A stretch of DNA of 64,000 nt from NCBI GenBank assembly GCA_965217585.1, contig OZ244561.1, forward strand, positions 6,144,001 to 6,208,000, given 5' to 3'. Shown here piece by piece: positions 41,663 to 57,742 of the stretch (position 1 is its first letter; each line of letters starts with the position of its first letter). Below the pieces are notes generated by a model, which did not search any database, was not told the origin of the DNA, and saw nothing but the letters and a program-made list of their open reading frames with translations. The stretch comes from Candidatus Latescibacterota bacterium (GTDB lineage Bacteria > Latescibacterota > UBA2968 > UBA8231). A program made the position numbers and the translations under genes.

Positions 41663-42727
41663 ATGGCAGAAAAGTACCGAGTAGGCATTACCGGCTGCGG
41701 CAGCATCGCCAACTACCACATGCAAGGCTGGAACGGGGTGGACCAAGTCGAGGTCGTGGCGCTGGCCGATCCGGTGGCTGCGGCGCGGGAGGAGTTCGGC
41801 AAGCGACATGGGATCGCCCAACGCTACGAGGATTGCCGCCAAATGCTCGACGACGAGGCGCTCGACATTGTCTCGATTTGCACTTGGCACAAGTTGCACG
41901 CGCCGATGACGATTGCCGCCTGTGCGCGCAAGCCCAAAGCCGTGCTGTGCGAAAAACCCATGGCGACGAGTCTGGGCGATTGCAACGACATGCTAATTGC
42001 CGCCCGGCGCAACCAGGTCAAGTTGGCCATTGCCCATCAGCGCCGCTTCAATCCGGCGTGGACCTTGGCCAAGGAACTGGTGGCAGCAGGGGCTATCGGC
42101 GAGGTGCGGCAGGTCAATGCGCGCGGCGGACAGGGCTTGCTCAACGATTGCTCGCACCTGTTGGACATGATGCGCTATGTGATGAGCGATCCACAGGCGG
42201 TGTGGGTGATGGGCAATATCGAGCGCAAGACCGAGCGCTTTGAGCGCGACATCCCCATTGAGGATCGCAGTCTGTGCGTGGTGCAATTCGACAACGGGGC
42301 CATCGGCCAGCTTTTGCAGGAATTGGCCGGCCCGAATTACCAAGGCGGGATCTTCTACGGCTCGGAGGGTATAATTGAACTCGACGAGAGTAAGGTGCGG
42401 CTGCTCAACAGCCAGACCGGCACTTGGGAGGAGCGTCCGGGCGAGGGTGAGGACCCCAGCGTTGGGCAGCAGCGCGAGATTGTGGAGTGGATCGAAGGCA
42501 AGGTCGAGCATCGCGGCCAAGCGGAAAACGGCCGAGCGGCGGTGGAGATCATCATGGCCACGTACGAGTCGGCGCGGCTACACGAGGTGACGGCGCTGCC
42601 TTTGCGGACGATGGCTTCGCCGTTGGAGGTGATGATCGAGGCGGGGGATTTGCCGGTAGAGCGCCCGGGCCGCTACGACATCCGCGCCTTTCTGCTGCGC
42701 GGCGAGGATATGCAGCCGGAGGGCTAG
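41663..42727 (+). CDS. Gfo/Idh/MocA oxidoreductase
   Basis: GITGCGSIA, LDIVSICT…H, LCEKPMA, HQRRF. Confidence 0.92.
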   Translation: MAEKYRVGITGCGSIANYHMQGWNGVDQVEVVALADPVAAAREEFGKRHGIAQRYEDCRQMLDDEALDIVSICTWHKLHAPMTIAACARKPKAVLCEKPMATSLGDCNDMLIAARRNQVKLAIAHQRRFNPAWTLAKELVAAGAIGEVRQVNARGGQGLLNDCSHLLDMMRYVMSDPQAVWVMGNIERKTERFERDIPIEDRSLCVVQFDNGAIGQLLQELAGPNYQGGIFYGSEGIIELDESKVRLLNSQTGTWEERPGEGEDPSVGQQREIVEWIEGKVEHRGQAENGRAAVEIIMATYESARLHEVTALPLRTMASPLEVMIEAGDLPVERPGRYDIRAFLLRGEDMQPEG

Positions 42728-44946
42728 TCGGTATTGGGCACTTGTTCTACCGACCCGTGCCAGAAGGCGATCCGCTCGCGTTTCCACGTATAGGTAATGG
42801 CCATGCCGACTTGGGTGGGGATGATCGCCGGATAGGAGTACTCGCCGTCGGCGGTTTCTAAGTCCAAGCGGCGCGGCCACGTCTGCCCATTGTCCGATGA
42901 GAGTAGGATCGACAGCGGGGTGCGCGTGCGCTCCACCGGGTTGCAGACTAAGGCGAGGGTGCCGTCGTGGAGGCGGGCTACGTCGAGGCCGCTGTTGTTG
43001 TTGGGCAGGTCCGTCGGATGGAGCGGCGACCAAGTCCGTCCTCCGTCTGCTGAGTCGCTGCGACCGATCCGCCCGCAGGTGCTGCGGGCCAGCAGATGCA
43101 CCCGCCCCGGGGCCGATTCCCAAAGCGTCGGCTGGATCGCGCCGCGGCCGGTAAAGAGCGAGCGGTCGCGTACTATGAGATCGCTGGCCTGCCAAGTCGC
43201 GCCTCGGTCCGTGCTGCGATCGACAAAGACCTCCCACCCTTCCTTTTCCAGCGAGGCCCCGGCCAGCCACGTGCCGTCGGCGAGCACGAGGAGCTTGTTT
43301 TTGACCGGCCCGCGCCCGCCTCGGTCGCCCGGTACTAGTGCTCGCGGCTCGGTCCAAGTTTGGCCGTCGTCGGCCGATTCTATCACCCAAGTCTCCCAAT
43401 CGGCTATTCGCTCGCCCACCTTGAAGAACAGATAGACGCAGCCGTCGCCGCTGGCGTGGAGCACTGGATTCCAGTGGGCGCAATCGCGCACCTTGGCCAA
43501 GCAGCGCGGGGCCGACCAACGCCCGTGCCGGCGCTCGGCTCCCCAGATCCCGACGTCCGCGTGGCTCTCGCGGGTGCCGCCAAACCACGCGGCGAGAAAC
43601 GCGCCGTTTTTGAGCTGCACCAAGGTTGAGGCATGGCACTGGGCGAAGGGCTGGTCGTCGGCAAACAGGTGCTCGCGGATGTGGATCAAGTGGCGCAGGT
43701 AGTCGCCGTAGGCGGATAGATCAAGCGACTGGCCGCCGGCCTCAATGGCTTGCTGGATCGCGGCGAGGGGCGCGTCCTGCAAGTCGCGTCCCTCGCGCTG
43801 GCAGATCCGCGCCGTCGTGCCGGCCGCAAAGCCCATCTGGGCGCAGGTCGCTTGGATGCGGAAGGAACTCATGGCCATCTGGTCGCCCGCGGCCGAGCGC
43901 CCGGCCACTAGCAGATTAGCGGCTCCTTTGGGCACTAGACTACGCAGGGGGATGTGATACGGCTCGACCATGGTGGTAATGCCCGTGCCGGCGCGCTCGA
44001 CTCGGTCGGGCCAGTGGTAGTCGAGATGGTAGGTGCCCACTGCCACTGAGTCGGGGAACGTGCAGGCATGGGTGACGTCCTCCTCGGTCAGGAGATATTC
44101 GCCGACAATGCGCCGTCCCTCGCGGGCACCGATGTGCCGGGAGACCGAGGCGAGGACGTGGGTGTCGAGCCGGGTGCCGCGGTAGCCCTTAGTCTGCAAG
44201 TAGTAAATCAGCCCCATCATCTGCCGCCGCGCATGTAGTTCGGCGCGGGACAGGCTCTGGCCATCGGCCGCGTCAAACCCCACGACCTTCATCTTGACTT
44301 CGACCTTGCCGGAGGGGAAGACGTGCAAGGTGGTCATGGGCAGGGCCTCGTCGTCGTCCCAAGTTGGGCAGCCCGGTGGCAAGAAGGGGGTGACGGGTCG
44401 GCCGGTGTCCCACAGCGCAAAGTAAAGGCTCATGGGCAGTTGTTTGTTGGCCCCCTCGTGGATGGTCGCAAACCCGGCCGCGTGGGCTAGGGCGCAGTCG
44501 CCGGTGGCATCGACGACCATGCCGGGCCGGAACTCGATGCGGTCAGAGGCGCAGGCAACCTCGACCGAGGCGATGTGTCCGCCGGTGCGTTGCGCTGTCA
44601 AGGCGCGGGCATGGAAGAGGATTTCGACGCCGGCTGAGGCGACCATTTCCTGCAAAAAGAAGGCGCACAATTCCAAGTCGTATGCACGGCGGTCGGCGAG
44701 CGGGTCGTACTCGGCGATGAGTTCGTGCTGGGCCAAGGTCGCGACGAGGCGGGCAAAAGGGGTGTTGACGCGCCGGCTATCGCCGCAAAAACCAGCGACG
44801 CCCCCGGCCGTGCCTTGGCCTCCCAAGACATTGGCCGGCTCGACAATGGCAACGGTGGTAGCGGGCGTTTTGGCGGCGAGTGCGGCAAAGGTGCCGGCCA
44901 TGCCGCCGCCGAGGACCAAGGTGTCGATGGGGCGGGTGATGGGCAT
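42724..44946 (-). CDS. FAD-dependent oxidoreductase fused to an exo-alpha-sialidase (BNR) domain
   Basis: DTLVLGGGMAG…LGGQGTAG, VDATGD, REGRRIVG, YHIPLRSL…NLLVAGR (FAD_oxidored). Then HASTL…AWFGG.RE, NPVL, and SADDGQTW/STDRGATW/SADGGRTW/SSDNGQTW Asp-boxes, YSYP. Confidence 0.87.
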   Translation of the reverse strand: MPITRPIDTLVLGGGMAGTFAALAAKTPATTVAIVEPANVLGGQGTAGGVAGFCGDSRRVNTPFARLVATLAQHELIAEYDPLADRRAYDLELCAFFLQEMVASAGVEILFHARALTAQRTGGHIASVEVACASDRIEFRPGMVVDATGDCALAHAAGFATIHEGANKQLPMSLYFALWDTGRPVTPFLPPGCPTWDDDEALPMTTLHVFPSGKVEVKMKVVGFDAADGQSLSRAELHARRQMMGLIYYLQTKGYRGTRLDTHVLASVSRHIGAREGRRIVGEYLLTEEDVTHACTFPDSVAVGTYHLDYHWPDRVERAGTGITTMVEPYHIPLRSLVPKGAANLLVAGRSAAGDQMAMSSFRIQATCAQMGFAAGTTARICQREGRDLQDAPLAAIQQAIEAGGQSLDLSAYGDYLRHLIHIREHLFADDQPFAQCHASTLVQLKNGAFLAAWFGGTRESHADVGIWGAERRHGRWSAPRCLAKVRDCAHWNPVLHASGDGCVYLFFKVGERIADWETWVIESADDGQTWTEPRALVPGDRGGRGPVKNKLLVLADGTWLAGASLEKEGWEVFVDRSTDRGATWQASDLIVRDRSLFTGRGAIQPTLWESAPGRVHLLARSTCGRIGRSDSADGGRTWSPLHPTDLPNNNSGLDVARLHDGTLALVCNPVERTRTPLSILLSSDNGQTWPRRLDLETADGEYSYPAIIPTQVGMAITYTWKRERIAFWHGSVEQVPNTD

Positions 44947-45307
44947 AGGGGCATCCGTTTGTTGGAGGGAATGGGAGTAATATGTGCACTCAGGAGGGCA
45001 GGGAACAGACGGCGGCGGGGTGTTTGACACTGTTCAACGCCCCGTCTTCCGTTTTTAAGACCCTTATAGAAACCGCGTAGAAAGGAGCACAACCGATCGT
45101 GCTATGGCTTGACACATACCCCTAATCGTGTGCATTTTAGTAACCACAATCGTATGTATCTTCATATTGGCTGATGTCAAAATAGAAAATGGTTCATAAC
45201 CCGACATTTGATAGGACCGCGCTTGGTGCCGTGGCCCCATGTAGCGTCCAGTCCCGAGCTTTGGACGACAAGGATAACTTCATAAGTCGTTCAAAAACAG
45301 TTATTTA

Positions 45308-45324
45308 CCCCCCCCCCCCCCCCC
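45308..45324. repeat. Homopolymer C17
   Basis: 17 consecutive C in the intergenic region upstream of the surface protein gene. Confidence 0.9.
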
Positions 45325-45644
45325 TCATTCTCTAAGACCCACTAGCTCCATACTGCGGCCAAGTCATATTTGGCCGCGCCTGCTCGGTTCTTTGCCGAGT
45401 ACCGATGGGCCGAAGGTCGCTTCTGTTCTGCGACCTGCTATAAACGTTTGTCCTTTATTGGCAGACGTTGGCCATCCTTTTTTGCGCCTGTCCGCAAACG
45501 TTCGTTCTCCCCTTAGCACACGATCCTCACGACCGATGCGGACCGATGTGTTGGAGGTCGTCTCTGTTGAACAAACACGACCTCGGCGGGGATTGAACCG
45601 GGCACTGGCGCTCGTCAACCACCCTCTGTGAAAGGAGATTTATC

Positions 45645-48600
45645 GTGAAGAACTTAGATCATATCGCTTCAGCTATCGCCGAGGCCATGAGTGTACATCG
45701 GTGGCGGGAGCAACGCCGCCCGCCATCGCCGCTTGACCGCCTGCCGCCCCGGTGGGGCGGCCGTCCTTCCCCATCGACTGCATCCGCCGCCGGTCCGCTG
45801 GCGGCGCGCGCGCGCTACGCGCTGGTGGCCGTGGCGTGCCTCGGCCTCACCTGTGTACTCGCCCTGCCGGTCGCGGCTCAGACCCTCTCGGACGACGTGA
45901 CGCTGAGCGCGCTGGTGGTCAACGACGGCAGCGCCGACCTGCCGCTGGAGCCGACCTTCAACTCAGCGACGGCCAGTTTCGGCGAATACTACGTGGATGT
46001 AAGCCACGATGTCGAGGAGGTGACGGTGACGGCAACGCCGAACCATTCCGGCGCGACGGTGGAATATGATCCCCCGAACGTGTTGCCCCTGGAGGTCGGC
46101 TATCAGGGCATCAGGATCTATGTGACCTCGGAAGACGGAGTTGAGGATGAGACCTACAAGGTGGGGGTGTTCCGGGCGCCGCCCGCGACGCCGTCCTGCA
46201 CGCTGAACCCGGGCGACATCTGGTGCTCGCTGCTCCCCGTCACTTTGAACGATCCCGCCCTTCTCGGCGCGAGTATTGGGGCCCTGTCCGACTTCGACTT
46301 CACCTACAAGGGCTACAAGTACTGGTTCCGGTCGATCCGCCTCGATGATCGAGACGGTGAACTCCGCGTCATTTTCTACCCCCTCTACCCCTTCAACAGG
46401 CTGACCGAACGGGCCGCCGTGGGCGCTCTCGATAAGCTGTATCTGCAAGTCGAGAACGAGTCGTTCCGTTTCTCGGAGAACGAGCGGCCTTCTTGGAGTA
46501 CGGCGCACCACCCATGGAGTGACAGCGGTCTGGAGTGGTCGGAAGGGACCACCGTCACGGTGCGGCTGCGGGAAAACCCCCCCGAGGTCGAGTCGGTGGA
46601 GGAGACGAGTTGGCCGCAATCGGGGGGGCACGTGTACAGGTGGGGCGATACGATCTTGTTCACCCTGACCTTCAGCGGGAAGGTGCGGGTGGAGGGCCAG
46701 CCAACGCTGGTCTTCGACCTGGGCGGGAGCGACCGTGAGGCACGGTTCTGGGGGCTGTCGGACATCGACTATACGAAGGACGGTCCGCGGCCGCGGCCGC
46801 GGCCGGAAGCGGTGAAGGTGCATTTCGGCTACACGGTGCAGCCGGGCGACTTCGACTCCGACGGCGTCGAGGTCGGGGAGCTGTCGAGCGCGATACGGCT
46901 CGGCGACGCTCGGATCCTGAGCGCTGCGAACGGCGACGAGGTGGAGCTCTCCTATGCCGCGCTCGGCCGGCTGATGGACCACACGGTCGACGGCGGGTCG
47001 ACGCAACCGCCGGCGGATGCCGGGGTCACGATCGTCGATACCGACGGCAATCCGCTCGCGCAGGTGAACGGGGAGTACCGGCTGGTGATTCCCGAGAACA
47101 CCTTGGGGCGCTACGGGCTGAAGCTGAACACCCGACCGACGCACCCGGTGGATTTCTCGGCGATCTATGGCGACGGCGACGAGGATCTGCGGGTATTGCC
47201 GACCTACACGCCACTGTCGATCGCGCCGGACGAGTGGGAGACCACGTATTGGATGGAAATCCGGGCGTGGCGCGACGACGACGCGGTGGACGGGGAGCGG
47301 GTCTTCCATAACCGCGTGCACAGCAAGGACCCGGTGTACAACGACCTCATCCTTCCCGATGTCCTCGTGGTTGAGGACGACGACGATGCTACGGCGTCGG
47401 CCACGGCGTTGGAGGAATCGTCGGGCGAAGATGACTTGGGAACGTCCGCCGGGCATTCGGAGCCGCAAGAGGAGGACGAGATTACCGCGCTGACGGCGAG
47501 CTTTGAGGACGAGCCGAGCGGGCATGACGGGGAGAGCGCATTCACGCTGCGGATCGCGTTCAGCGAGGCGGTCGCGATCGACGCCCCCAGCGTGGGGGTG
47601 ATCAACGGCTCGGTGACCGAGGTCCGGCGCGTGGACGGACGCGACGACCTGTGGGAGATCACCGTGGTGCCGGCGTCGAACGAGATGGTGTTCGTCTCGC
47701 TCTTGCAACCGCTGGCCTGCGGCGAGACGGGCGCGATCTGCACGGCTGACGGACGGCCGTTGTCGGTGGGCATCTCGACGGTGGTGCCGGGGCCGGAGGA
47801 ATTGTCGGGCACCTCCGAGGAACAGGTGTCGGAGGAATTGTCGGACGATTCGGGTGCCGAGGAGACCGCCCAGCAGCCGAAGTCGGATGATTCGTCGGGG
47901 AATCGGAAATCCACCGATGGTAACGCGCCGCGCGGTACTGCTACCTCTACCGCTGGCGGCGATTCCTCAGACGCTAGTGAAAGCGAGGAGCAACAGGAGT
48001 CCCCCAATACCGAGGAGCCGTCCACGCCCACCGTTGAGTCGGAGGAATCGTCGGACGATCCGGGTGGCGGTGGCACCTCCGAGGAACAGGCGTCGGAGGA
48101 ATCGTCGGACGATCCGGGTGGCGGTGGCACCTCCGAGGAACAGGTGTCGGAGGAATCGTCGGACGATCCGGGTGGCGGTGGCACCTCCGAGGAACAGGTG
48201 TCGGAGGAATCGTCGGGCGATTCGGGTGGCGAGGAGACCGCCCAACAACCGAAGTCGGAGGAATCGTCGGACGATTCGGGTGGCGAGGAGACCTCAAAGC
48301 AAGCAGAGTCGGAGGAATCGTCGGACGATTCGGGTGGCGGTGAGCCCTCCGAGGAACAGGTGTCGGAGGAATCGTCGGGCGATCCGGGTGACGAGGAGCC
48401 GCCCACGCCCACCGTTGAGCTCGATGGCATATCCGCGAGTCATAGTTCGGTTAGCGAAAACGATGGGCCGGTGACCATCACGGTGACCGTGACGTTGGAC
48501 AAAGCCGCTGCGGTTGACGAGACGATCACCCTCGCGATTGTCTCCCCAACATTAGGCAAGACGGCCAAGCAAGGCGAGGATTTCGACGCGACATTAGATG

Positions 48601-49322
48601 GAACCATCACCATTGCAAAAGGCCAGAGAACGGGGACGGCGCAGCTTATCCTGACGCCCAAGGACAACGCGACGGCCGATGGCCCTAGGGCCTTCGCTGT
48701 GCTGGCTACTTCGTCGAGTGGACACCAAGCTCTGATCAATATCAGGATCGACGACGACGACGAGGCCGACGGCGAGGCCGACGACGAAATGGCCGACGGC
48801 GAGGCCGACGACGAAATGGCCGACGACGAGGCCGACGATAGCGGGATGGCCGACGAGGCCGACGGCGAGCTGGCCGACGACGACGATGGCGAGGCCGACG
48901 ACGGGATGGCCGACGGCGAGGACGATAAGGCCGACGACGACGATGGCGAGGCCGACGACGAAATGGCCGACGGCGAGGACGGCGAGGCCGACGGCGAGGA
49001 CGATGAGGCCGACGACGAGATGGCCCTTGCTTTCGCCGGGGCGGTCGCAGACCAAGCGTACACCGCTGGTGCGGCGATTACCGCGCTGCAACTGCCGGAA
49101 GCTATGGGCGGTGAAGGCGATATAACGTACCGCGTCTTCGACTTGCCTGCTGGCTTGACGTTTGACGCGGACACGCGGACGATTTCGGGCACGCCCGAAG
49201 CCGCCACCGCTGGGGCCGTTGAGGTCACCTACTTGGCGCAGGACAGCGCAGGAGCCGGCGCTACGTTGACCTTCTCCATCACGGTCAACCCGGAGCTGAG
49301 ATTGGGACTCGGCGACTCTTAA
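45645..49322 (+). CDS. Large acidic surface/adhesin-like protein (cadherin-like beta-sandwich, Calx-beta-like, He_PIG Ig-like domains, low-complexity repeats)
   Basis: AAAGGAG RBS. Late signal peptide …LPVAA|Q. SDDVTLSAL…LEPTF…EVTVTATP (cadherin-like); SVSENDGPVTITVTL (Calx-like); LP.A.GG.GD.TY…LPAGLTFD..TRTISGTP (He_PIG). Confidence 0.85.
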   Translation: MKNLDHIASAIAEAMSVHRWREQRRPPSPLDRLPPRWGGRPSPSTASAAGPLAARARYALVAVACLGLTCVLALPVAAQTLSDDVTLSALVVNDGSADLPLEPTFNSATASFGEYYVDVSHDVEEVTVTATPNHSGATVEYDPPNVLPLEVGYQGIRIYVTSEDGVEDETYKVGVFRAPPATPSCTLNPGDIWCSLLPVTLNDPALLGASIGALSDFDFTYKGYKYWFRSIRLDDRDGELRVIFYPLYPFNRLTERAAVGALDKLYLQVENESFRFSENERPSWSTAHHPWSDSGLEWSEGTTVTVRLRENPPEVESVEETSWPQSGGHVYRWGDTILFTLTFSGKVRVEGQPTLVFDLGGSDREARFWGLSDIDYTKDGPRPRPRPEAVKVHFGYTVQPGDFDSDGVEVGELSSAIRLGDARILSAANGDEVELSYAALGRLMDHTVDGGSTQPPADAGVTIVDTDGNPLAQVNGEYRLVIPENTLGRYGLKLNTRPTHPVDFSAIYGDGDEDLRVLPTYTPLSIAPDEWETTYWMEIRAWRDDDAVDGERVFHNRVHSKDPVYNDLILPDVLVVEDDDDATASATALEESSGEDDLGTSAGHSEPQEEDEITALTASFEDEPSGHDGESAFTLRIAFSEAVAIDAPSVGVINGSVTEVRRVDGRDDLWEITVVPASNEMVFVSLLQPLACGETGAICTADGRPLSVGISTVVPGPEELSGTSEEQVSEELSDDSGAEETAQQPKSDDSSGNRKSTDGNAPRGTATSTAGGDSSDASESEEQQESPNTEEPSTPTVESEESSDDPGGGGTSEEQASEESSDDPGGGGTSEEQVSEESSDDPGGGGTSEEQVSEESSGDSGGEETAQQPKSEESSDDSGGEETSKQAESEESSDDSGGGEPSEEQVSEESSGDPGDEEPPTPTVELDGISASHSSVSENDGPVTITVTVTLDKAAAVDETITLAIVSPTLGKTAKQGEDFDATLDGTITIAKGQRTGTAQLILTPKDNATADGPRAFAVLATSSSGHQALINIRIDDDDEADGEADDEMADGEADDEMADDEADDSGMADEADGELADDDDGEADDGMADGEDDKADDDDGEADDEMADGEDGEADGEDDEADDEMALAFAGAVADQAYTAGAAITALQLPEAMGGEGDITYRVFDLPAGLTFDADTRTISGTPEAATAGAVEVTYLAQDSAGAGATLTFSITVNPELRLGLGDS
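47797..48420 (+). repeat. Intragenic 54-bp tandem repeats (SEESSDDPGGGGTSEEQV-type)
   Basis: Near-identical 18-codon units from about 48039 to 48390, plus a related copy near 47800-47890. Confidence 0.9.
48750..49022 (+). repeat. Intragenic Asp/Glu-rich degenerate repeats (DGEADDEMA)
   Basis: Recurrent GACGGCGAGGCCGACGACGAAATGGCC units. Confidence 0.9.
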
Positions 49323-49352
49323 CTCAAATAGGCCCTGCCCCTCGACCCCTGC

Positions 49353-49389
49353 AAAGCGCCCGATGTCTCCTTGGCATCGGGCGCTTTTT
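49353..49389 (+). terminator. Rho-independent terminator (possibly bidirectional)
   Basis: AAAGCGCCCGATG-loop-CATCGGGCGCTTTTT, 30 nt after the stop at 49322. Confidence 0.85.
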
Positions 49390-49434
49390 CATGCACTGAT
49401 ACCTGACACCCGACGCGAGTTTTAAGAATGCTTC

Positions 49435-49470
49435 TTAGGACCAGACGAAAATCGCCGGTTTGTCCTCCGA
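49435..49470 (-). repeat. Displaced copy of the 3' end of CDS 50578..51426 (direct repeat with 50578-50613)
   Basis: 32/36 nt identical. Encodes SEDKPAIFVWS* versus SADKPEIFVWS*. Confidence 0.9.
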
Positions 49471-49514
49471 ATCACGGCTAGGGATATTACAGTAAATGAC
49501 GTTACGCGGCGGGC

Positions 49515-49790
49515 CTACTCGTCGGCTTCTAACAGGCGTCTAAAGGCTTCGAGGCTGGGCACCTGTATGGCCGCCCGATGTAACTGCTTGAGGCGCTGCA
49601 CATCGTCAATGGCCTCAATGCGGTCGGCCAACTGGCGGGCTTCCTCCGGCTGAAAGCGCAGGGCCAACACTTCGAGGAGAAATTCTCGGCCCCCCTGCTC
49701 AATGCCCTGCTCCAGTCCTTCCTCAACACCTTGTTTGCGGGCTTGTTCGGTCAGGTATTGGGCAACGGGTGATTCGCGGATAATATCCAT
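49515..49790 (-). CDS. Probable internally initiated small C-terminal protein (RpnS-type antitoxin), 91 aa
   Basis: In-frame ATG at 49790 preceded by AAGGAGG (plus-strand 49796-49802, 5-nt spacer) and a U-run. Confidence 0.65.
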   Translation of the reverse strand: MDIIRESPVAQYLTEQARKQGVEEGLEQGIEQGGREFLLEVLALRFQPEEARQLADRIEAIDDVQRLKQLHRAAIQVPSLEAFRRLLEADE

Positions 49791-50435
49791 CAGGCCCTCC
49801 TTAAAAAAAATGGCAGAAACGGTGTCTGGTGCGTACACCAACCCGCTCAGCAGCGACATCGCGGCTAGACAATCGGCTTTCGTCGACCGGTCCATCGTGT
49901 GTGCCTGTGCCGTACGCACACACGCCTGGAGCCAATCCTCCGACGCTTGCCCCGTCGCTGGCTTCATCAACGGCGCAAACGGCAGCAGTCCCATAGGCCC
50001 CGACTCTAAGATCGGTTGGCCGTCCTGTTCGCTCAGCCGGATCACTTGGTACTCAATTAAGATGCGGTGGCCGGGCTGCTCTTGGAAATAGTGTCCCGGA
50101 TCGCGCCGACCTGCCTCCGACCGCAGGTAGATCACGATAGCATACACCGGCAGGCCGTATTGCTCAACAAGCCGCCCGATGTAGCCGACCATCCGCCGCG
50201 GCATGGGCGGGTCGGTCCGGTCGGTGGTTTGAAACTCCGTATGAACCAACACCTCCTTGTCGCCGAGCCGCACGCGCAGCAGGCTATCAGTGCGGCGGGC
50301 TGCGACCGTGGGTTGCTCGGTGTCGAGCACGTCTAAGACTTCGATGTCGTCGCGACCGAAGGTGAAGCGGACAAAATCGTCGGGGTAGTGTTGAATCAAG
50401 TATTTGGAAATGGTATCAAAGTCAGACATCGGCAT
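49515..50435 (-). CDS. Rpn/YhgA-like (recombination-promoting nuclease / putative transposase) PD-(D/E)XK protein
   Basis: DFDTISKYL..YP.DF, RRTDSLL…VHTEFQT, MP.RM..Y, PVY.IVIYL, YQVIRL, LLPFAPLM, C-terminal QG.EEG.EQG.EQG…RF…I..I.D…L..L. Confidence 0.88.
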   Translation of the reverse strand: MPMSDFDTISKYLIQHYPDDFVRFTFGRDDIEVLDVLDTEQPTVAARRTDSLLRVRLGDKEVLVHTEFQTTDRTDPPMPRRMVGYIGRLVEQYGLPVYAIVIYLRSEAGRRDPGHYFQEQPGHRILIEYQVIRLSEQDGQPILESGPMGLLPFAPLMKPATGQASEDWLQACVRTAQAHTMDRSTKADCLAAMSLLSGLVYAPDTVSAIFFKEGLMDIIRESPVAQYLTEQARKQGVEEGLEQGIEQGGREFLLEVLALRFQPEEARQLADRIEAIDDVQRLKQLHRAAIQVPSLEAFRRLLEADE

Positions 50436-50577
50436 TGCCTTGAGGCCGGGGTTAGGCCGTGCCCTGTTGCACCTTAAATAGGTAATGTGTGGACTGGGGG
50501 CCGCTTGTCAATTGGCGGGGAGGCCGCAGGCCCCAGGCGGGGAAGGCCGCAAAACATCGGGCCGACGCGCAGTTCCC

Positions 50578-51426
50578 CTAGGACCAGACAAAAATCTCCG
50601 GTTTGTCCGCCGACATGGCGAAGAAGCAGGCTAGCACGACGCGGCGGCGCTGGCGCGTTAGGCGTTCTACTTCGTGGATGTTTTCGGTGCAGAAGAAGTA
50701 GAGATCGCCCGGCGTCAGCCGGACTTGGACGCGGGGGATGCGGCGCTCGGCGACGTACTCGGCGAAGCGATCTTCGCGCAGGACTTCCTCGACGTGGGGC
50801 TGGGTGCCCCAGCACCGATAGATAAAGGGTTCGTCGGCGCTTGCTGCATCGCCGGTTTGCAAGCACAGCACCCCGGCGAATTGGCGCTGGAAGTTGGCGA
50901 CTGCGTATTCGTAGCCGGGGCGAGAGCGCTTGGCGACGGAGTCGTAGTGGGGTCTGTGGCCTTCGGCGGCGTGATACATGCGGAAGATGGCCGGTCCGTA
51001 GAGCCGTCCGTCTGGTTCGCGCGCGGTTTGTACTACTTTGCCCTCGGCTAGGTCGGATAGGGCTGCGTACATCGTGCGTACCGGATCTGCAAACCCCTCG
51101 AAGAGCGTTGCGAACAACTCGTGGGTGCCGGCGGCGTGGGCGAAGAAGGCCGCTGGGTCGGACCCGAGCCGTCCGAGGCTGGTGCCCAAGTCGAGATAGG
51201 GGCCGCCGCTTAGCTGGGAAGCTTGGCCCACGGTGGCCGGGTCGAAATAACCCCGCTCTTCAAAGCGGCGCATCAAGTCGCGGCAGTGGTCGGGCGAGTA
51301 AGCACCCCGCAGGATCACGGCGGGGACATCGCCGGCGGCTAAAGCGGTGAGAGGGCGGGGCAGGCTGTGCAGCAGAGCGGCCGTGCTGTGGGCCTCGGCG
51401 GGTGTCCAAGCGTTGGGCTGGGTCAT
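50578..51426 (-). CDS. 2OG-Fe(II) oxygenase-like hypothetical protein
   Basis: PAIFRMY…HRPHYD (HxD), GVLCLQ, PGDLYFF…HEV…R.VL. Confidence 0.7.
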   Translation of the reverse strand: MTQPNAWTPAEAHSTAALLHSLPRPLTALAAGDVPAVILRGAYSPDHCRDLMRRFEERGYFDPATVGQASQLSGGPYLDLGTSLGRLGSDPAAFFAHAAGTHELFATLFEGFADPVRTMYAALSDLAEGKVVQTAREPDGRLYGPAIFRMYHAAEGHRPHYDSVAKRSRPGYEYAVANFQRQFAGVLCLQTGDAASADEPFIYRCWGTQPHVEEVLREDRFAEYVAERRIPRVQVRLTPGDLYFFCTENIHEVERLTRQRRRVVLACFFAMSADKPEIFVWS

Positions 51427-55465: not shown

Positions 55466-56758
55466 ATGATTACGCAAATTGAGATCGGGGGCTATCGGCT
55501 TCTCGACGAGTTTAAGGCAGACTTCAAGCCGCTGACCGTGGTGATCGGTGCCAATGCCGTCGGCAAAAGTACGCTGATCGATTGTCTGCAACTGATTACC
55601 GAGTGTTGCGATTTTCCGCTAAATACCGCGATTGGTTGGCATTATGGGGCAGCGTCCCTTCTTACCTCAGGTAACGGGAATGGGAAGCTGACTTGGAAAA
55701 TCACATTTCATAGGCCCGCCACATGGGCTGCTTTTCCATTGGAGGCGGAAAAGTCCTTGGTGTACGAGGTTCTTCTCCAAGCCGATGCACAGGGTCAGAT
55801 GCACTCGCGATACGAGGTTCTCAGAAACCAAGAGCCAGCACCGGGACACACGGAACCCCTCAAGTTTCTGGAGACAACCCCGTACCATCGACACATATTC
55901 GACAGAAAACAACGCCGATTGATACCGTTTGATGAAGCGCAATCTTCACCTAATCTCGTCCGCGAATCCGATTCGGCGGAAGCCACCTCGGAAAGCGGCC
56001 TGATACAGCCTGCACAACAGGAGGCTGCGTTATTACTTTCACAAATCCGATTCTTCAACGAGTTTCCCATTCCTTCCTCAGCACGCGTTCTATTGGCGAA
56101 CATGGCGTTCTATCCGGGTTTCGATGTAACACGGTCTTCCACGCTACGCACCAAGGCCGACGATATCAAGCCAGTTACAACATTATCGGCTAACGGTGAT
56201 AACTTAGGTACCGTGCTGCACGAAATCCTGACCCGATATGATTATCGTTCAGTAGCAGAGAAGTTGCGTGATTTTCTGCGTGTAGCCTATCCCGCATTTG
56301 AGGAAATTCATTGCGATACCACCTTTGGAACGCCTCCACAAGTGCTGGTTGGGGTGCGCGAGAAAGGCATGTCTCGCTCCATGAATCTGTGGGATCTTTC
56401 GGATGGTATGCTGCGATTCCTGTGTCTGGCGACAGCTCTGTTGAATCCGCGACCTCTACTGCTAGTGGCGATTGACGAGCCGGAATTAGGATTGCATCCC
56501 GGCCTGTTGCCAATTGTGGCAGAAATGATCAAAACAGCGGCGGAGCGCACTCAAGTGTTGGTGACGACACACAGCCCGGATTTACTCAACTGCTTCGATA
56601 TAGCCGATGTTGCCGTGATGGCGCGAGATGCAGACGACGCACAGGTCACGTGGCATCGTCCTGCGGACCGCAAGACGCTTGTGCGAATGCTCAATAACGT
56701 TACTGGCGAAACGTTGGGAGACCTGCACCGCTCCGGCGAATTGGAGGCCGGCGCATGA
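55466..56758 (+). CDS. ABC-type (AAA_21-like) ATPase, putative defence/TA component
   Basis: Walker A GANAVGKS, signature LSDGM, Walker B AIDEPE.GLHP, H-loop TTHSP. Visibly more AT-rich than its neighbours. Confidence 0.88.
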   Translation: MITQIEIGGYRLLDEFKADFKPLTVVIGANAVGKSTLIDCLQLITECCDFPLNTAIGWHYGAASLLTSGNGNGKLTWKITFHRPATWAAFPLEAEKSLVYEVLLQADAQGQMHSRYEVLRNQEPAPGHTEPLKFLETTPYHRHIFDRKQRRLIPFDEAQSSPNLVRESDSAEATSESGLIQPAQQEAALLLSQIRFFNEFPIPSSARVLLANMAFYPGFDVTRSSTLRTKADDIKPVTTLSANGDNLGTVLHEILTRYDYRSVAEKLRDFLRVAYPAFEEIHCDTTFGTPPQVLVGVREKGMSRSMNLWDLSDGMLRFLCLATALLNPRPLLLVAIDEPELGLHPGLLPIVAEMIKTAAERTQVLVTTHSPDLLNCFDIADVAVMARDADDAQVTWHRPADRKTLVRMLNNVTGETLGDLHRSGELEAGA

Positions 56759-57423
56759 AGATATGGATTTTTGTAGAAGGGGATTCAGAGGTTAGGGCAC
56801 TGTCAGCATTGTTGAACGGCTGGAAGCAGCAGCTTAGAAAGAAGGGCTGGGGCATTAAGCTAGTAAGTCTCGACGGCAAGTCCAACTATTTCAAGAGAAT
56901 TGGACCCCGTGCAGCCGAGAAGTTGGAGAATGATACGCGCGATCTCGTTGTGGGCTTACCCGATCTCTACCCAAATCGAGATTATGCGAATACGGATTAC
57001 AGACACAACAATCTGCAAGAGCTTCAAGGCGTTCAAAGGCGCTTGGTGGAACAGCAATTGCGGGAGCAGATGGGAAAACGGACTGATATTGCCAGTCACA
57101 TGGCGCGTTTTTATCCCAGCGCGTTGAAACACGATTTGGAAGTGCTAATCCTTGCTGCGACGAGTCAACTTCAGGCCCAACTCAAGATGTCGAACAGGCC
57201 TAGAGGCTGGCGACAACCTCCAGAAGAGCAAAATCAAGACAAACCCCCGAAGAAAGTTGTTGAGGAACTCTTTCGGAAAAATATCAGACATGCCTATAAG
57301 CCAACCACGGATAGCTACGCCATTCTCAGAAATGCAGACTTGCGAGAGGTGGCAGAACAGTGTCCGACATTCCGTGCTATGATCGATTGGATCGGCGAGA
57401 AGACCGGCGTACCTGGGTATTGA
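56755..57423 (+). CDS. DUF4276-like TOPRIM-fold protein
   Basis: IFVEGDSE, DLYP, HDLEVLILA, PEEQN…P, Y.P..D, CPTFR. ATGA overlap with the ATPase gene. Confidence 0.8.
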   Translation: MKIWIFVEGDSEVRALSALLNGWKQQLRKKGWGIKLVSLDGKSNYFKRIGPRAAEKLENDTRDLVVGLPDLYPNRDYANTDYRHNNLQELQGVQRRLVEQQLREQMGKRTDIASHMARFYPSALKHDLEVLILAATSQLQAQLKMSNRPRGWRQPPEEQNQDKPPKKVVEELFRKNIRHAYKPTTDSYAILRNADLREVAEQCPTFRAMIDWIGEKTGVPGY

Positions 57424-57663: not shown

Positions 57664-57742
57664 TAATCGTTTGAGGACACGGAAGTAGTCGGTTGGGGAT
57701 TTGTCGTTGGTCCAGCACTTGTAGTTGAGACCCTAGAGCGGC
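57664..57742 (-). repeat. Displaced, decayed copy of the near-3' end of CDS 59012..60235 (direct repeat with 59042-59118)
   Basis: Translates L*GLNYKCWTNDKSPTDYFRVLKRL versus LQGLNFEYWTDDGSA-EYARVLKRL; 56/72 nt over 24 aligned codons. Confidence 0.85.

Follow-up and report, generated by a model that had tools for sequence, protein, structure and literature searches.

Among the described systems closest to the locus reported here is insertion with long target duplication, to which work by Nobusato et al. in 2000 is reportedly linked. In mobile insertion cassettes, the ends of an insertion sequence (IS) surround a passenger gene, the target duplication is short and the transposase acts in trans. 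Inverted-repeat-flanked units of restriction-modification (RM) genes have also been described (Furuta, Abe & Kobayashi 2010, PMC2853133). In E. coli, 56 of 60 recombinants carried duplications of the lacZ end (109-950 bp in the 14 sequenced), which arise by trimming, recircularisation and a single crossover (PMC3240628). The rpn genes are described by Zhong et al. (PMC10400941) as being without flanking inverted repeats or target duplications. The present analysis concerns 64,000 nucleotides of a Candidatus Latescibacterota bacterium (contig OZ244561.1, positions 6,144,001 to 6,208,000), referred to as the window, in which an Rpn-like nuclease gene lies directly behind an oxygenase gene and is bracketed by a 36-bp duplication of the end of that gene.

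The downstream 36-bp copy is interpreted, with a probability of about 0.6, as the oxygenase end displaced by an integrase-free, homology-anchored insertion of the long-target-duplication kind, with rpn as the cargo. The scar most likely reflects ordinary recombination with the DNA of relatives and not a special trick of the nuclease. The parts of the locus are given below in the direction of transcription of the oxygenase. G000 is the genome of the window, the other G numbers are genomes of the same genus and the L numbers are loci.

50578-51426, minus strand: anchor gene, a 2OG-Fe(II) oxygenase of the WelO5 fold, 282 aa (Pfam PF22814)
50578-50613, minus strand: working copy of the oxygenase end, SADKPEIFVWS with stop TAG (sequence match)
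50436-50577, minus strand: leader of rpn, 142 bp; TTGACA box at 50511; 75% to L053/L054 along 108 nt
49515-50435, minus strand: cargo, an intact gene for a predicted Rpn-like PD-(D/E)XK nuclease, 306 aa (TIGR01784, Atlas, residues, structure)
49515-49802, minus strand: predicted small protein of RpnS type, 91 aa, containing 4-aa repeats; internal ribosome-binding site (RBS) at 49802, in-frame ATG at 49790 (M216)
49496-49507, minus strand: right terminal inverted repeat of the IS701-family element of the genus, one mismatch, at the canonical distance past the rpn stop
49471-49495, minus strand: 25-bp spacer from the IS end to the orphan, common to G005 up to the same point
49435-49470, minus strand: orphan (displaced) oxygenase end, SEDKPAIFVWS with its stop (36-bp match)
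49306-49435, minus strand: dispersed repeat with an IS-end-like 16-mer at its start and a hairpin (88% over 135 bp to genome positions 6611759-6611892)

The two 36-bp copies agree at 32 of 36 positions with a spacing of 1143 bp, and both keep the oxygenase frame when translated on the minus strand. The match lies beyond chance, since the next-best ungapped 36-nt match in the 7.3-Mb genome, on both strands, reaches 24/36. An earlier note on this DNA had recognised the repeat, and its description of a frame-preserving match holds. It had further counted two silent differences as a sign of two functional alleles. The TTC/TTT change is silent, beside two replacements; the TAA/TAG change need not be allelic, because the TAA of the orphan is completed by an A with which a dispersed 16-nt repeat begins (15 matches with at most two mismatches, 13 of them after CTN). 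Between the copies lie 1107 bp with a single open reading frame (ORF): the 142-bp leader, the 306-aa Rpn-like ORF and a 44-bp tail. The joint does not coincide with the end of the IS element, because the 25-bp spacer separates that end from the orphan.

The oxygenase matches PF22814 with 70 bits (cut-off 27), its residues 26-282 covering model positions 16-277 of 277. Since the match reaches the last residue (282), the duplicated tail is situated inside the oxygenase domain. Given its HxD motif, the enzyme is presumably a hydroxylase and not a halogenase. Orthologs with 89-94% identity occur in 22 genomes of the genus, the G000 and G005 oxygenases being 91% identical. The ends of orthologs without rpn had been predicted to read SEDKPAIFVWS-TAA. 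This peptide is found in 0 of 21 orthologous ends and the commonest end is SADKPEIFVWS (11/21). Both replacement residues of the orphan are nevertheless natural, with E at position 2 in four and A at position 6 in two of the 21 ends, which agrees with the proposal of two functional alleles, as does the genome-wide mismatch pattern described below. All nine loci in which bases of the Gfo/PQQ-gene type come next have TAA as the oxygenase stop; the remaining 12 have TAG.

Approximately 20 kb around the oxygenase were compared in 20 of the 22 ortholog genomes (two on short contigs were left out), which gives 21 loci with the window. The junction between the oxygenase and a convergent Gfo gene is an insertion hotspot. 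G007 carries the empty allele: the oxygenase stop directly abuts the Gfo gene, with an insert of 0 and the joint at window position 42717. At this place the window contains 7.86 kb, comprising the rpn unit, a surface-protein block and an FAD oxidoreductase-BNR gene. The other loci have inserts of 2.2-17.3 kb; the Gfo neighbour was placed in 16 of the 21 loci and is unplaced in 5. The remaining parts of the site in the window are the following.

45645-49322, plus strand: second cargo, a 1225-aa repeat-rich surface protein (cadherin-like, He_PIG), present at the site in none of the 20 other loci
42724-45030, minus strand: older cargo, an FAD oxidoreductase-BNR fusion, whole or partial in many orthologous loci (cluster of 12 ORFs)
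41663-42727, plus strand: Gfo/Idh/MocA gene, convergent to the oxygenase and next to it in the empty allele; several relatives carry a duplication of its 3' end

Nineteen orphan oxygenase ends are present in 12 of the 21 loci, two weak matches (G008 and G009) being excluded from this count. Their left edges vary from -17 to beyond -149, and the orphan of G022 carries an internal deletion. Direct bracketing of rpn is found for three of the 19: the window copy, and the copies in G001 and G022, where the rpn unit is inverted and unrelated to that of the window. Behind the orphan of G002 and G005 comes the flank seen directly after the gene in alleles without those cassettes. The end of the Gfo gene is duplicated as well (G012, G013, G014, G028 and G029). 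The cargo at the site includes PglZ/methylase/DUF6079 clusters and LRR, DUF2971, Schlafen-type and SIR2-like proteins. In G019 (L038, stop +1 to +13919), a 13.9-kb PglZ/methylase/DUF6079 (BREX-like) block has a flanking duplication of near 300 bp that spans both convergent gene ends; similar blocks occur in G001, G008 and G021.

The downstream 36-bp copy thus behaves as a displaced gene end, as the earlier note had proposed, and two further expectations of that note are not supported. The empty junction that it predicted, in which the oxygenase end would run into the sequence to the left of 49435, is absent in 20 of 20 loci compared; that flank is the dispersed repeat, the start of the next cargo block and not ancestral flank, and the empty allele of G007 joins the genes 7.86 kb away. 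A defined 1143-bp mobile unit is likewise not borne out. G005 (L042) contains the rpn unit of the window in a decayed form, with the tail common up to the first bases of the orphan and the 36-bp copy absent, and G027 retains a stub of the unit; the leader starts at the same point in G005 and G027. The G005 remnant (oxygenase stop +1 to +1200) is a pseudogene of rpn in which numerous deletions of 10-25 bp have occurred and a miniature inverted-repeat transposable element with IS701-type ends has inserted just before the internal RBS.

Neither an allele without just the 1143-bp unit nor its precise excision was found among the 15 of 56 joints listed in four public runs, where contigs lose rare forms, and the 20 loci likewise hold no such allele. 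Contigs from three public runs or studies connect the oxygenase end with the FAD-oxidoreductase region, without rpn and the surface gene (joints 44981-50603 and 45024-50579); for these, excision and other strains are indistinguishable. Run X7 contains the rpn unit together with a contig joining 50736 to 49469, which suggests a longer orphan, of about 159 bp, that a deletion would have cut to 36 bp. A metagenome scan yielded one close locus (L153), of the same cassette type as G002; five more distant metagenome loci were checked and showed no orphan.

Several other parts of the window deserve mention. The surface-protein gene contains 54-bp and 27-bp acidic repeat arrays and starts behind an IS-end-like repeat. 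The segment 45085-45534 is non-coding, includes a long G run and has copies of 82-84% at three other places of the genome. An AAA_21 ATPase and a DUF4276 gene form a probable defence module at 55466-57423, and a direct repeat with 23/29 matches at 57664/59042 lies beyond this pair.

The displaced gene end is one of many in the genome. Genes were called with a simple gene finder of our own, and for the 4592 of at least 450 bp, low-copy orphans of their last codons were searched within 25 kb. A downstream orphan tail accompanies 51 of the 4592 genes (58 pairs) and an upstream one 9; control windows placed 150 and 300 bp before the stop give 8 and 4 genes. This corresponds to approximately 7 scars per Mb in this one genome. 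The tails measure 27-230 bp with a median pair identity of 92%, comparable to the 91% that separates the G000 and G005 oxygenase alleles in identity, and 33 of the 58 pairs end within -3 to +5 of the stop. When at least 40 non-coding bases follow (34 pairs), 21 end at the stop versus 2 expected. The divergence within pairs is allele-like: mismatches by codon position are distributed as 92/48/181, and a single premature stop occurs in the 58 pairs. Duplication followed by neutral decay is rejected, because the mismatches favor third positions (p 3e-8), and the mismatch spectrum is nearer to, yet not at, the ortholog spectrum.

The inserts are free of recombinases, as the 48 insert regions contain none of the five tyrosine recombinases of the genome; a search of the genome found neither serine resolvase nor Ku. 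The ORFs of short inserts that were scanned (20 of 28) encode 8 metabolic enzymes, 8 defence-like proteins, 2 propellers and 2 unassigned proteins. The scar is not a footprint specific to rpn, as had been supposed: 16 of the 19 orphans at the site do not bracket rpn directly, many of the 51 scarred genes have metabolic enzymes as inserts, and just two of nine rpn positions fall within the 48 insert regions. The rpn-specific reading of the 36-bp repeat is therefore only partly supported. In 32 of 58 pairs the orphan tail is followed by a convergent gene, compared with 32% genome-wide. Duplications of gene starts also occur, with 26 upstream and 20 downstream orphans, a much weaker polarity than in the 3' class (55 vs 8).

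An RpnL/RpnS toxin-antitoxin defence gene is the most likely identity of the cargo, which would earlier have moved between IS701-type ends; this assignment is made from sequence and predicted structure. The protein reaches 22 bits against TIGR01784, below the cut-off of 52.1, and no Rpn Pfam family was matched in 72 homologs. The Atlas feature search ranked Rpn/DUF4351 clusters first (0.97). Residues D7, D50, E67, Q69 and R81 are invariant in 72/72 aligned homologs and correspond, by order and spacing and not by alignment to RpnA, to D11, D63, E82, Q84 and R94 of that protein. The model of the N-domain (pLDDT 80.8) gives a VIA Z of 7.3 to NucS 2vld, with an rmsd of 3.2 over 99 aligned residues; other nucleases give Z 5-6.8, all structural matches have Z <8 and Foldseek returned none at E 0.001. 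A single-sequence fold (pLDDT 47) was not used, and the PDB sequence search returned chance VPS35 matches only. M216 is conserved in 70 of 72 aligned homologs, whereas the number of 4-aa repeats varies, and an in-frame internal RBS-ATG pattern is present in 93 of 94 rpn loci (a count without null comparison). The leader is homologous to those of rpn copies with a left IS701-type repeat at -254. A consensus promoter scan of the leader found no full site and a terminator scan found nothing.

The 94 rpn loci examined are the top of a list of about 274 matches. Around them, IS701-family ends are present on both sides at 27 loci, on the left only at 26, on the right only at 13 and on neither side at 28. 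Perfect 5-bp target duplications flank 9 of the 27 two-ended loci versus 1.7% in the null, some of the sites being common to two genomes, and the cognate IS701-family transposase scores 353 bits against NF049921 (cut-off 250). A unit of about 1.07 kb, with rpn between the inverted repeats, occurs at many unrelated sites, e.g., L082:1914-2979 (G000:C1:7194913-7195978). The only empty site found for such a unit is approximate (L138 versus G000, short by 36 nt). At 7194914, the G000 copy sits within a larger private insert. These other copies of the genus have the attributes of an IS701-derived non-autonomous element. The window copy is not a complete element of this type: it has the right end alone and the left repeat is absent. 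No report of rpn between IS701 ends appeared in the literature searched, which left out most subscription papers and supplements; Fig. S1B of Zhong et al. may bear on this. A second rpn copy of G000 (C1:1562740-1563982, L083) lies between two copies of a 106-bp stretch from the start of the downstream gene. The upstream one of these shows an altered start together with a stop in frame; the duplication is present in G002 (L055) and absent in G004 (L056).

According to the favored explanation, a fragment from a related lineage would be taken into the cell, bringing the oxygenase 3' part with its stop and, directly behind it, the promoter and rpn. Trimming would remove some of the gene part of the fragment, the two ends would be joined into a circle, and one crossover in the common gene end would integrate it. 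The gene would then be whole, with the cargo behind its stop and the old end of the recipient displaced downstream. The left edge of the orphan would represent the variable joint of the circle, and the right edge the limit of homology between donor and recipient at the stop codon. The orphan was probably shortened afterwards by small deletions, and repeated rounds would stack cassettes at the oxygenase/Gfo junction. DNA uptake, circularisation and host recombination are steps that we infer; ComEC and DprA are present in the genome. A replacement ratchet at operon ends may have brought the cargo against the stop codons.

Several points weigh against this explanation. A homology of 36 bp is short for RecA. 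No donor-recipient pair has been caught, and a window and tree test for mosaicism in the oxygenase linked none of G000, G005 and G027, the trees being without resolution. The longer orphan form is deduced from the joined ends of one contig. The mismatch spectrum is also off a pure-ortholog baseline (p 4e-4, the baseline being one gene). Competence genes are widespread (10/14 and 11/14 control genomes) and do not show uptake. Finally, two unrelated rpn units occupy one junction, and flanking direct repeats are found at 14 of 94 rpn loci versus 19 of 1417 like-sized genes and 5 of 195 low-GC genes, although the control genes are mostly core and the excess may mirror recent arrival alone.

The last two points would be accounted for if Rpn assisted its own mobility, the nuclease nicking or breaking DNA and so promoting a homology-anchored insertion at gene ends. 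This alternative is considered unlikely. The repeat-flanked rpn loci comprise some 7-8 independent sites that are not repeat elements (hand count), versus 1.3-2.6% of comparable genes, and the second G000 copy within its gene-start duplication, likewise in G002, fits the same pattern. RpnA nicks DNA and promotes RecA-independent recombination (PMC5350276), and breakage made by the cargo has been proposed for RM systems (PMC2853133). On the other hand, 16 of the 19 orphans at the site and most of the 58 genome pairs are without rpn, enzyme cargo bears the identical scar, such repeats are missing at 80 of the 94 rpn loci, and IS701-type ends are present instead at 27. Zhong et al. (PMC10400941) also report no autonomous mobility of rpn. 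A bolder version is improbable: the Rpn-like nucleases of this lineage would drive their own integrase-free insertion by nicking gene ends, with a captured allele restoring the host gene; this would be a second mobility route beside IS701 hitchhiking, and the nucleases may also drive the genome-wide scars in trans.

Formation of merodiploids by transformation has reportedly been published. The orphan could accordingly be the remnant of a second whole oxygenase with its flank, gained by unequal recombination between the arrays of two lineages and eroded from the left. Such an origin also yields two alleles, short deletions are rife (the G005 pseudogene and the G022 orphan), and the G019 duplication covers both gene ends. 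It is nonetheless judged doubtful at best, as no orphan in the 21 loci extends upstream of residue 230 and the gene count is 51 at the stop but 4 at -300. In addition, the orphans are at most 230 bp and ungapped, some with 100% identity, which leaves little time for erosion.

The clustering of right edges at the stop is also what an att site would give, if the cassettes were integrase-less islets served by a site-specific integrase in trans. Att-sized orphans of 17-19 bp with common upstream context occur in G001, G021 and G029, and cassettes recur in different order (G010 and G022). This possibility is very unlikely: the variable left edges leave no fixed crossover core, the genome has five tyrosine recombinases and no resolvase for 51 unrelated target genes, either of the convergent gene ends serves as a target, and no recombinase family was found in the 28 locus proteins scanned (26 cargo and 2 flanking, part of the clusters). 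An integrase-borne genomic island was rejected, given the variable left edges and a recombinase gene being absent in and beside the insert. That the repeat is the target duplication of an IS701-family transposition of the rpn unit is effectively refuted by geometry, despite the right inverted repeat at its canonical place, as the left repeat is missing, the element makes 5-bp duplications and the orphan starts 25 bp past its end.

The favored insertion with recombination between relatives can be placed beside the known systems as follows. The class of Furuta et al. (PMC2853133) comprises inserts below 20 kb with a variable duplication above 30 bp and no mobility gene, and here the duplication measures 36 bp and the 1107-bp insert has neither integrase nor transposase. 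Nuclease cargo is a further common feature, and some of the published repeats overlap gene 3' ends. A relative with an empty allele (G007) is seen for the site as a whole and, among the loci and joints compared, not for the 1143-bp unit by itself. Since that class was screened for R and M genes, and the cargo here is a single Rpn-like gene or plain enzymes, the locus is class-like and not an RM member. It differs in that the scar is genome-wide (51 genes), lies at stop codons, forms stacked arrays and shows allele-like divergence. The E. coli experiments (PMC3240628) share the one-sided homology to a gene 3' end that yields variable duplications without integrase; they represent a rare laboratory event with identical DNA, whereas the present case is deduced from natural genomes. 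The type VI secretion system effector-immunity arrays of V. cholerae (PMC5361080) similarly receive new modules behind a conserved anchor, which displace the old ones downstream. There the anchor is the 5' part of the toxin and whole immunity genes are orphaned; here it is the last codons of a host gene, which is restored. Those arrays were attributed to homology-facilitated illegitimate recombination, whose classical form couples insertion to deletion and was rejected here, where a duplication is seen.

The cargo resembles the RpnL-RpnS genes of the Rpn/YhgA family (PMC10400941, PMC5350276) in its D/D/E-x-Q/R residues, its internal RBS and Met, its variable 4-aa repeats and its patchy, multi-copy, hitchhiking distribution. 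Unlike that family, the window protein falls below the TIGR01784 cut-off and has no Pfam match. Contrary to the statement in PMC10400941, both IS701-type ends surround rpn at 27 of 94 loci here, nine of them with perfect 5-bp duplications. The likeness to mobile insertion cassettes holds for these other rpn copies, and the window copy has the right end alone. The IS701-ended units are consequently an exception to the published statement and offer a concrete route for the spread of rpn copy number. The locus itself is a clean single-gene case of a known, mechanistically unsettled integrase-free gene gain. Dozens of cases in the same genome show regularities that lend themselves to testing: right edges anchored at the stop, divergence as between alleles, and stacking at a convergent junction. 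These favor host recombination with the DNA of relatives over breaks made by the cargo.

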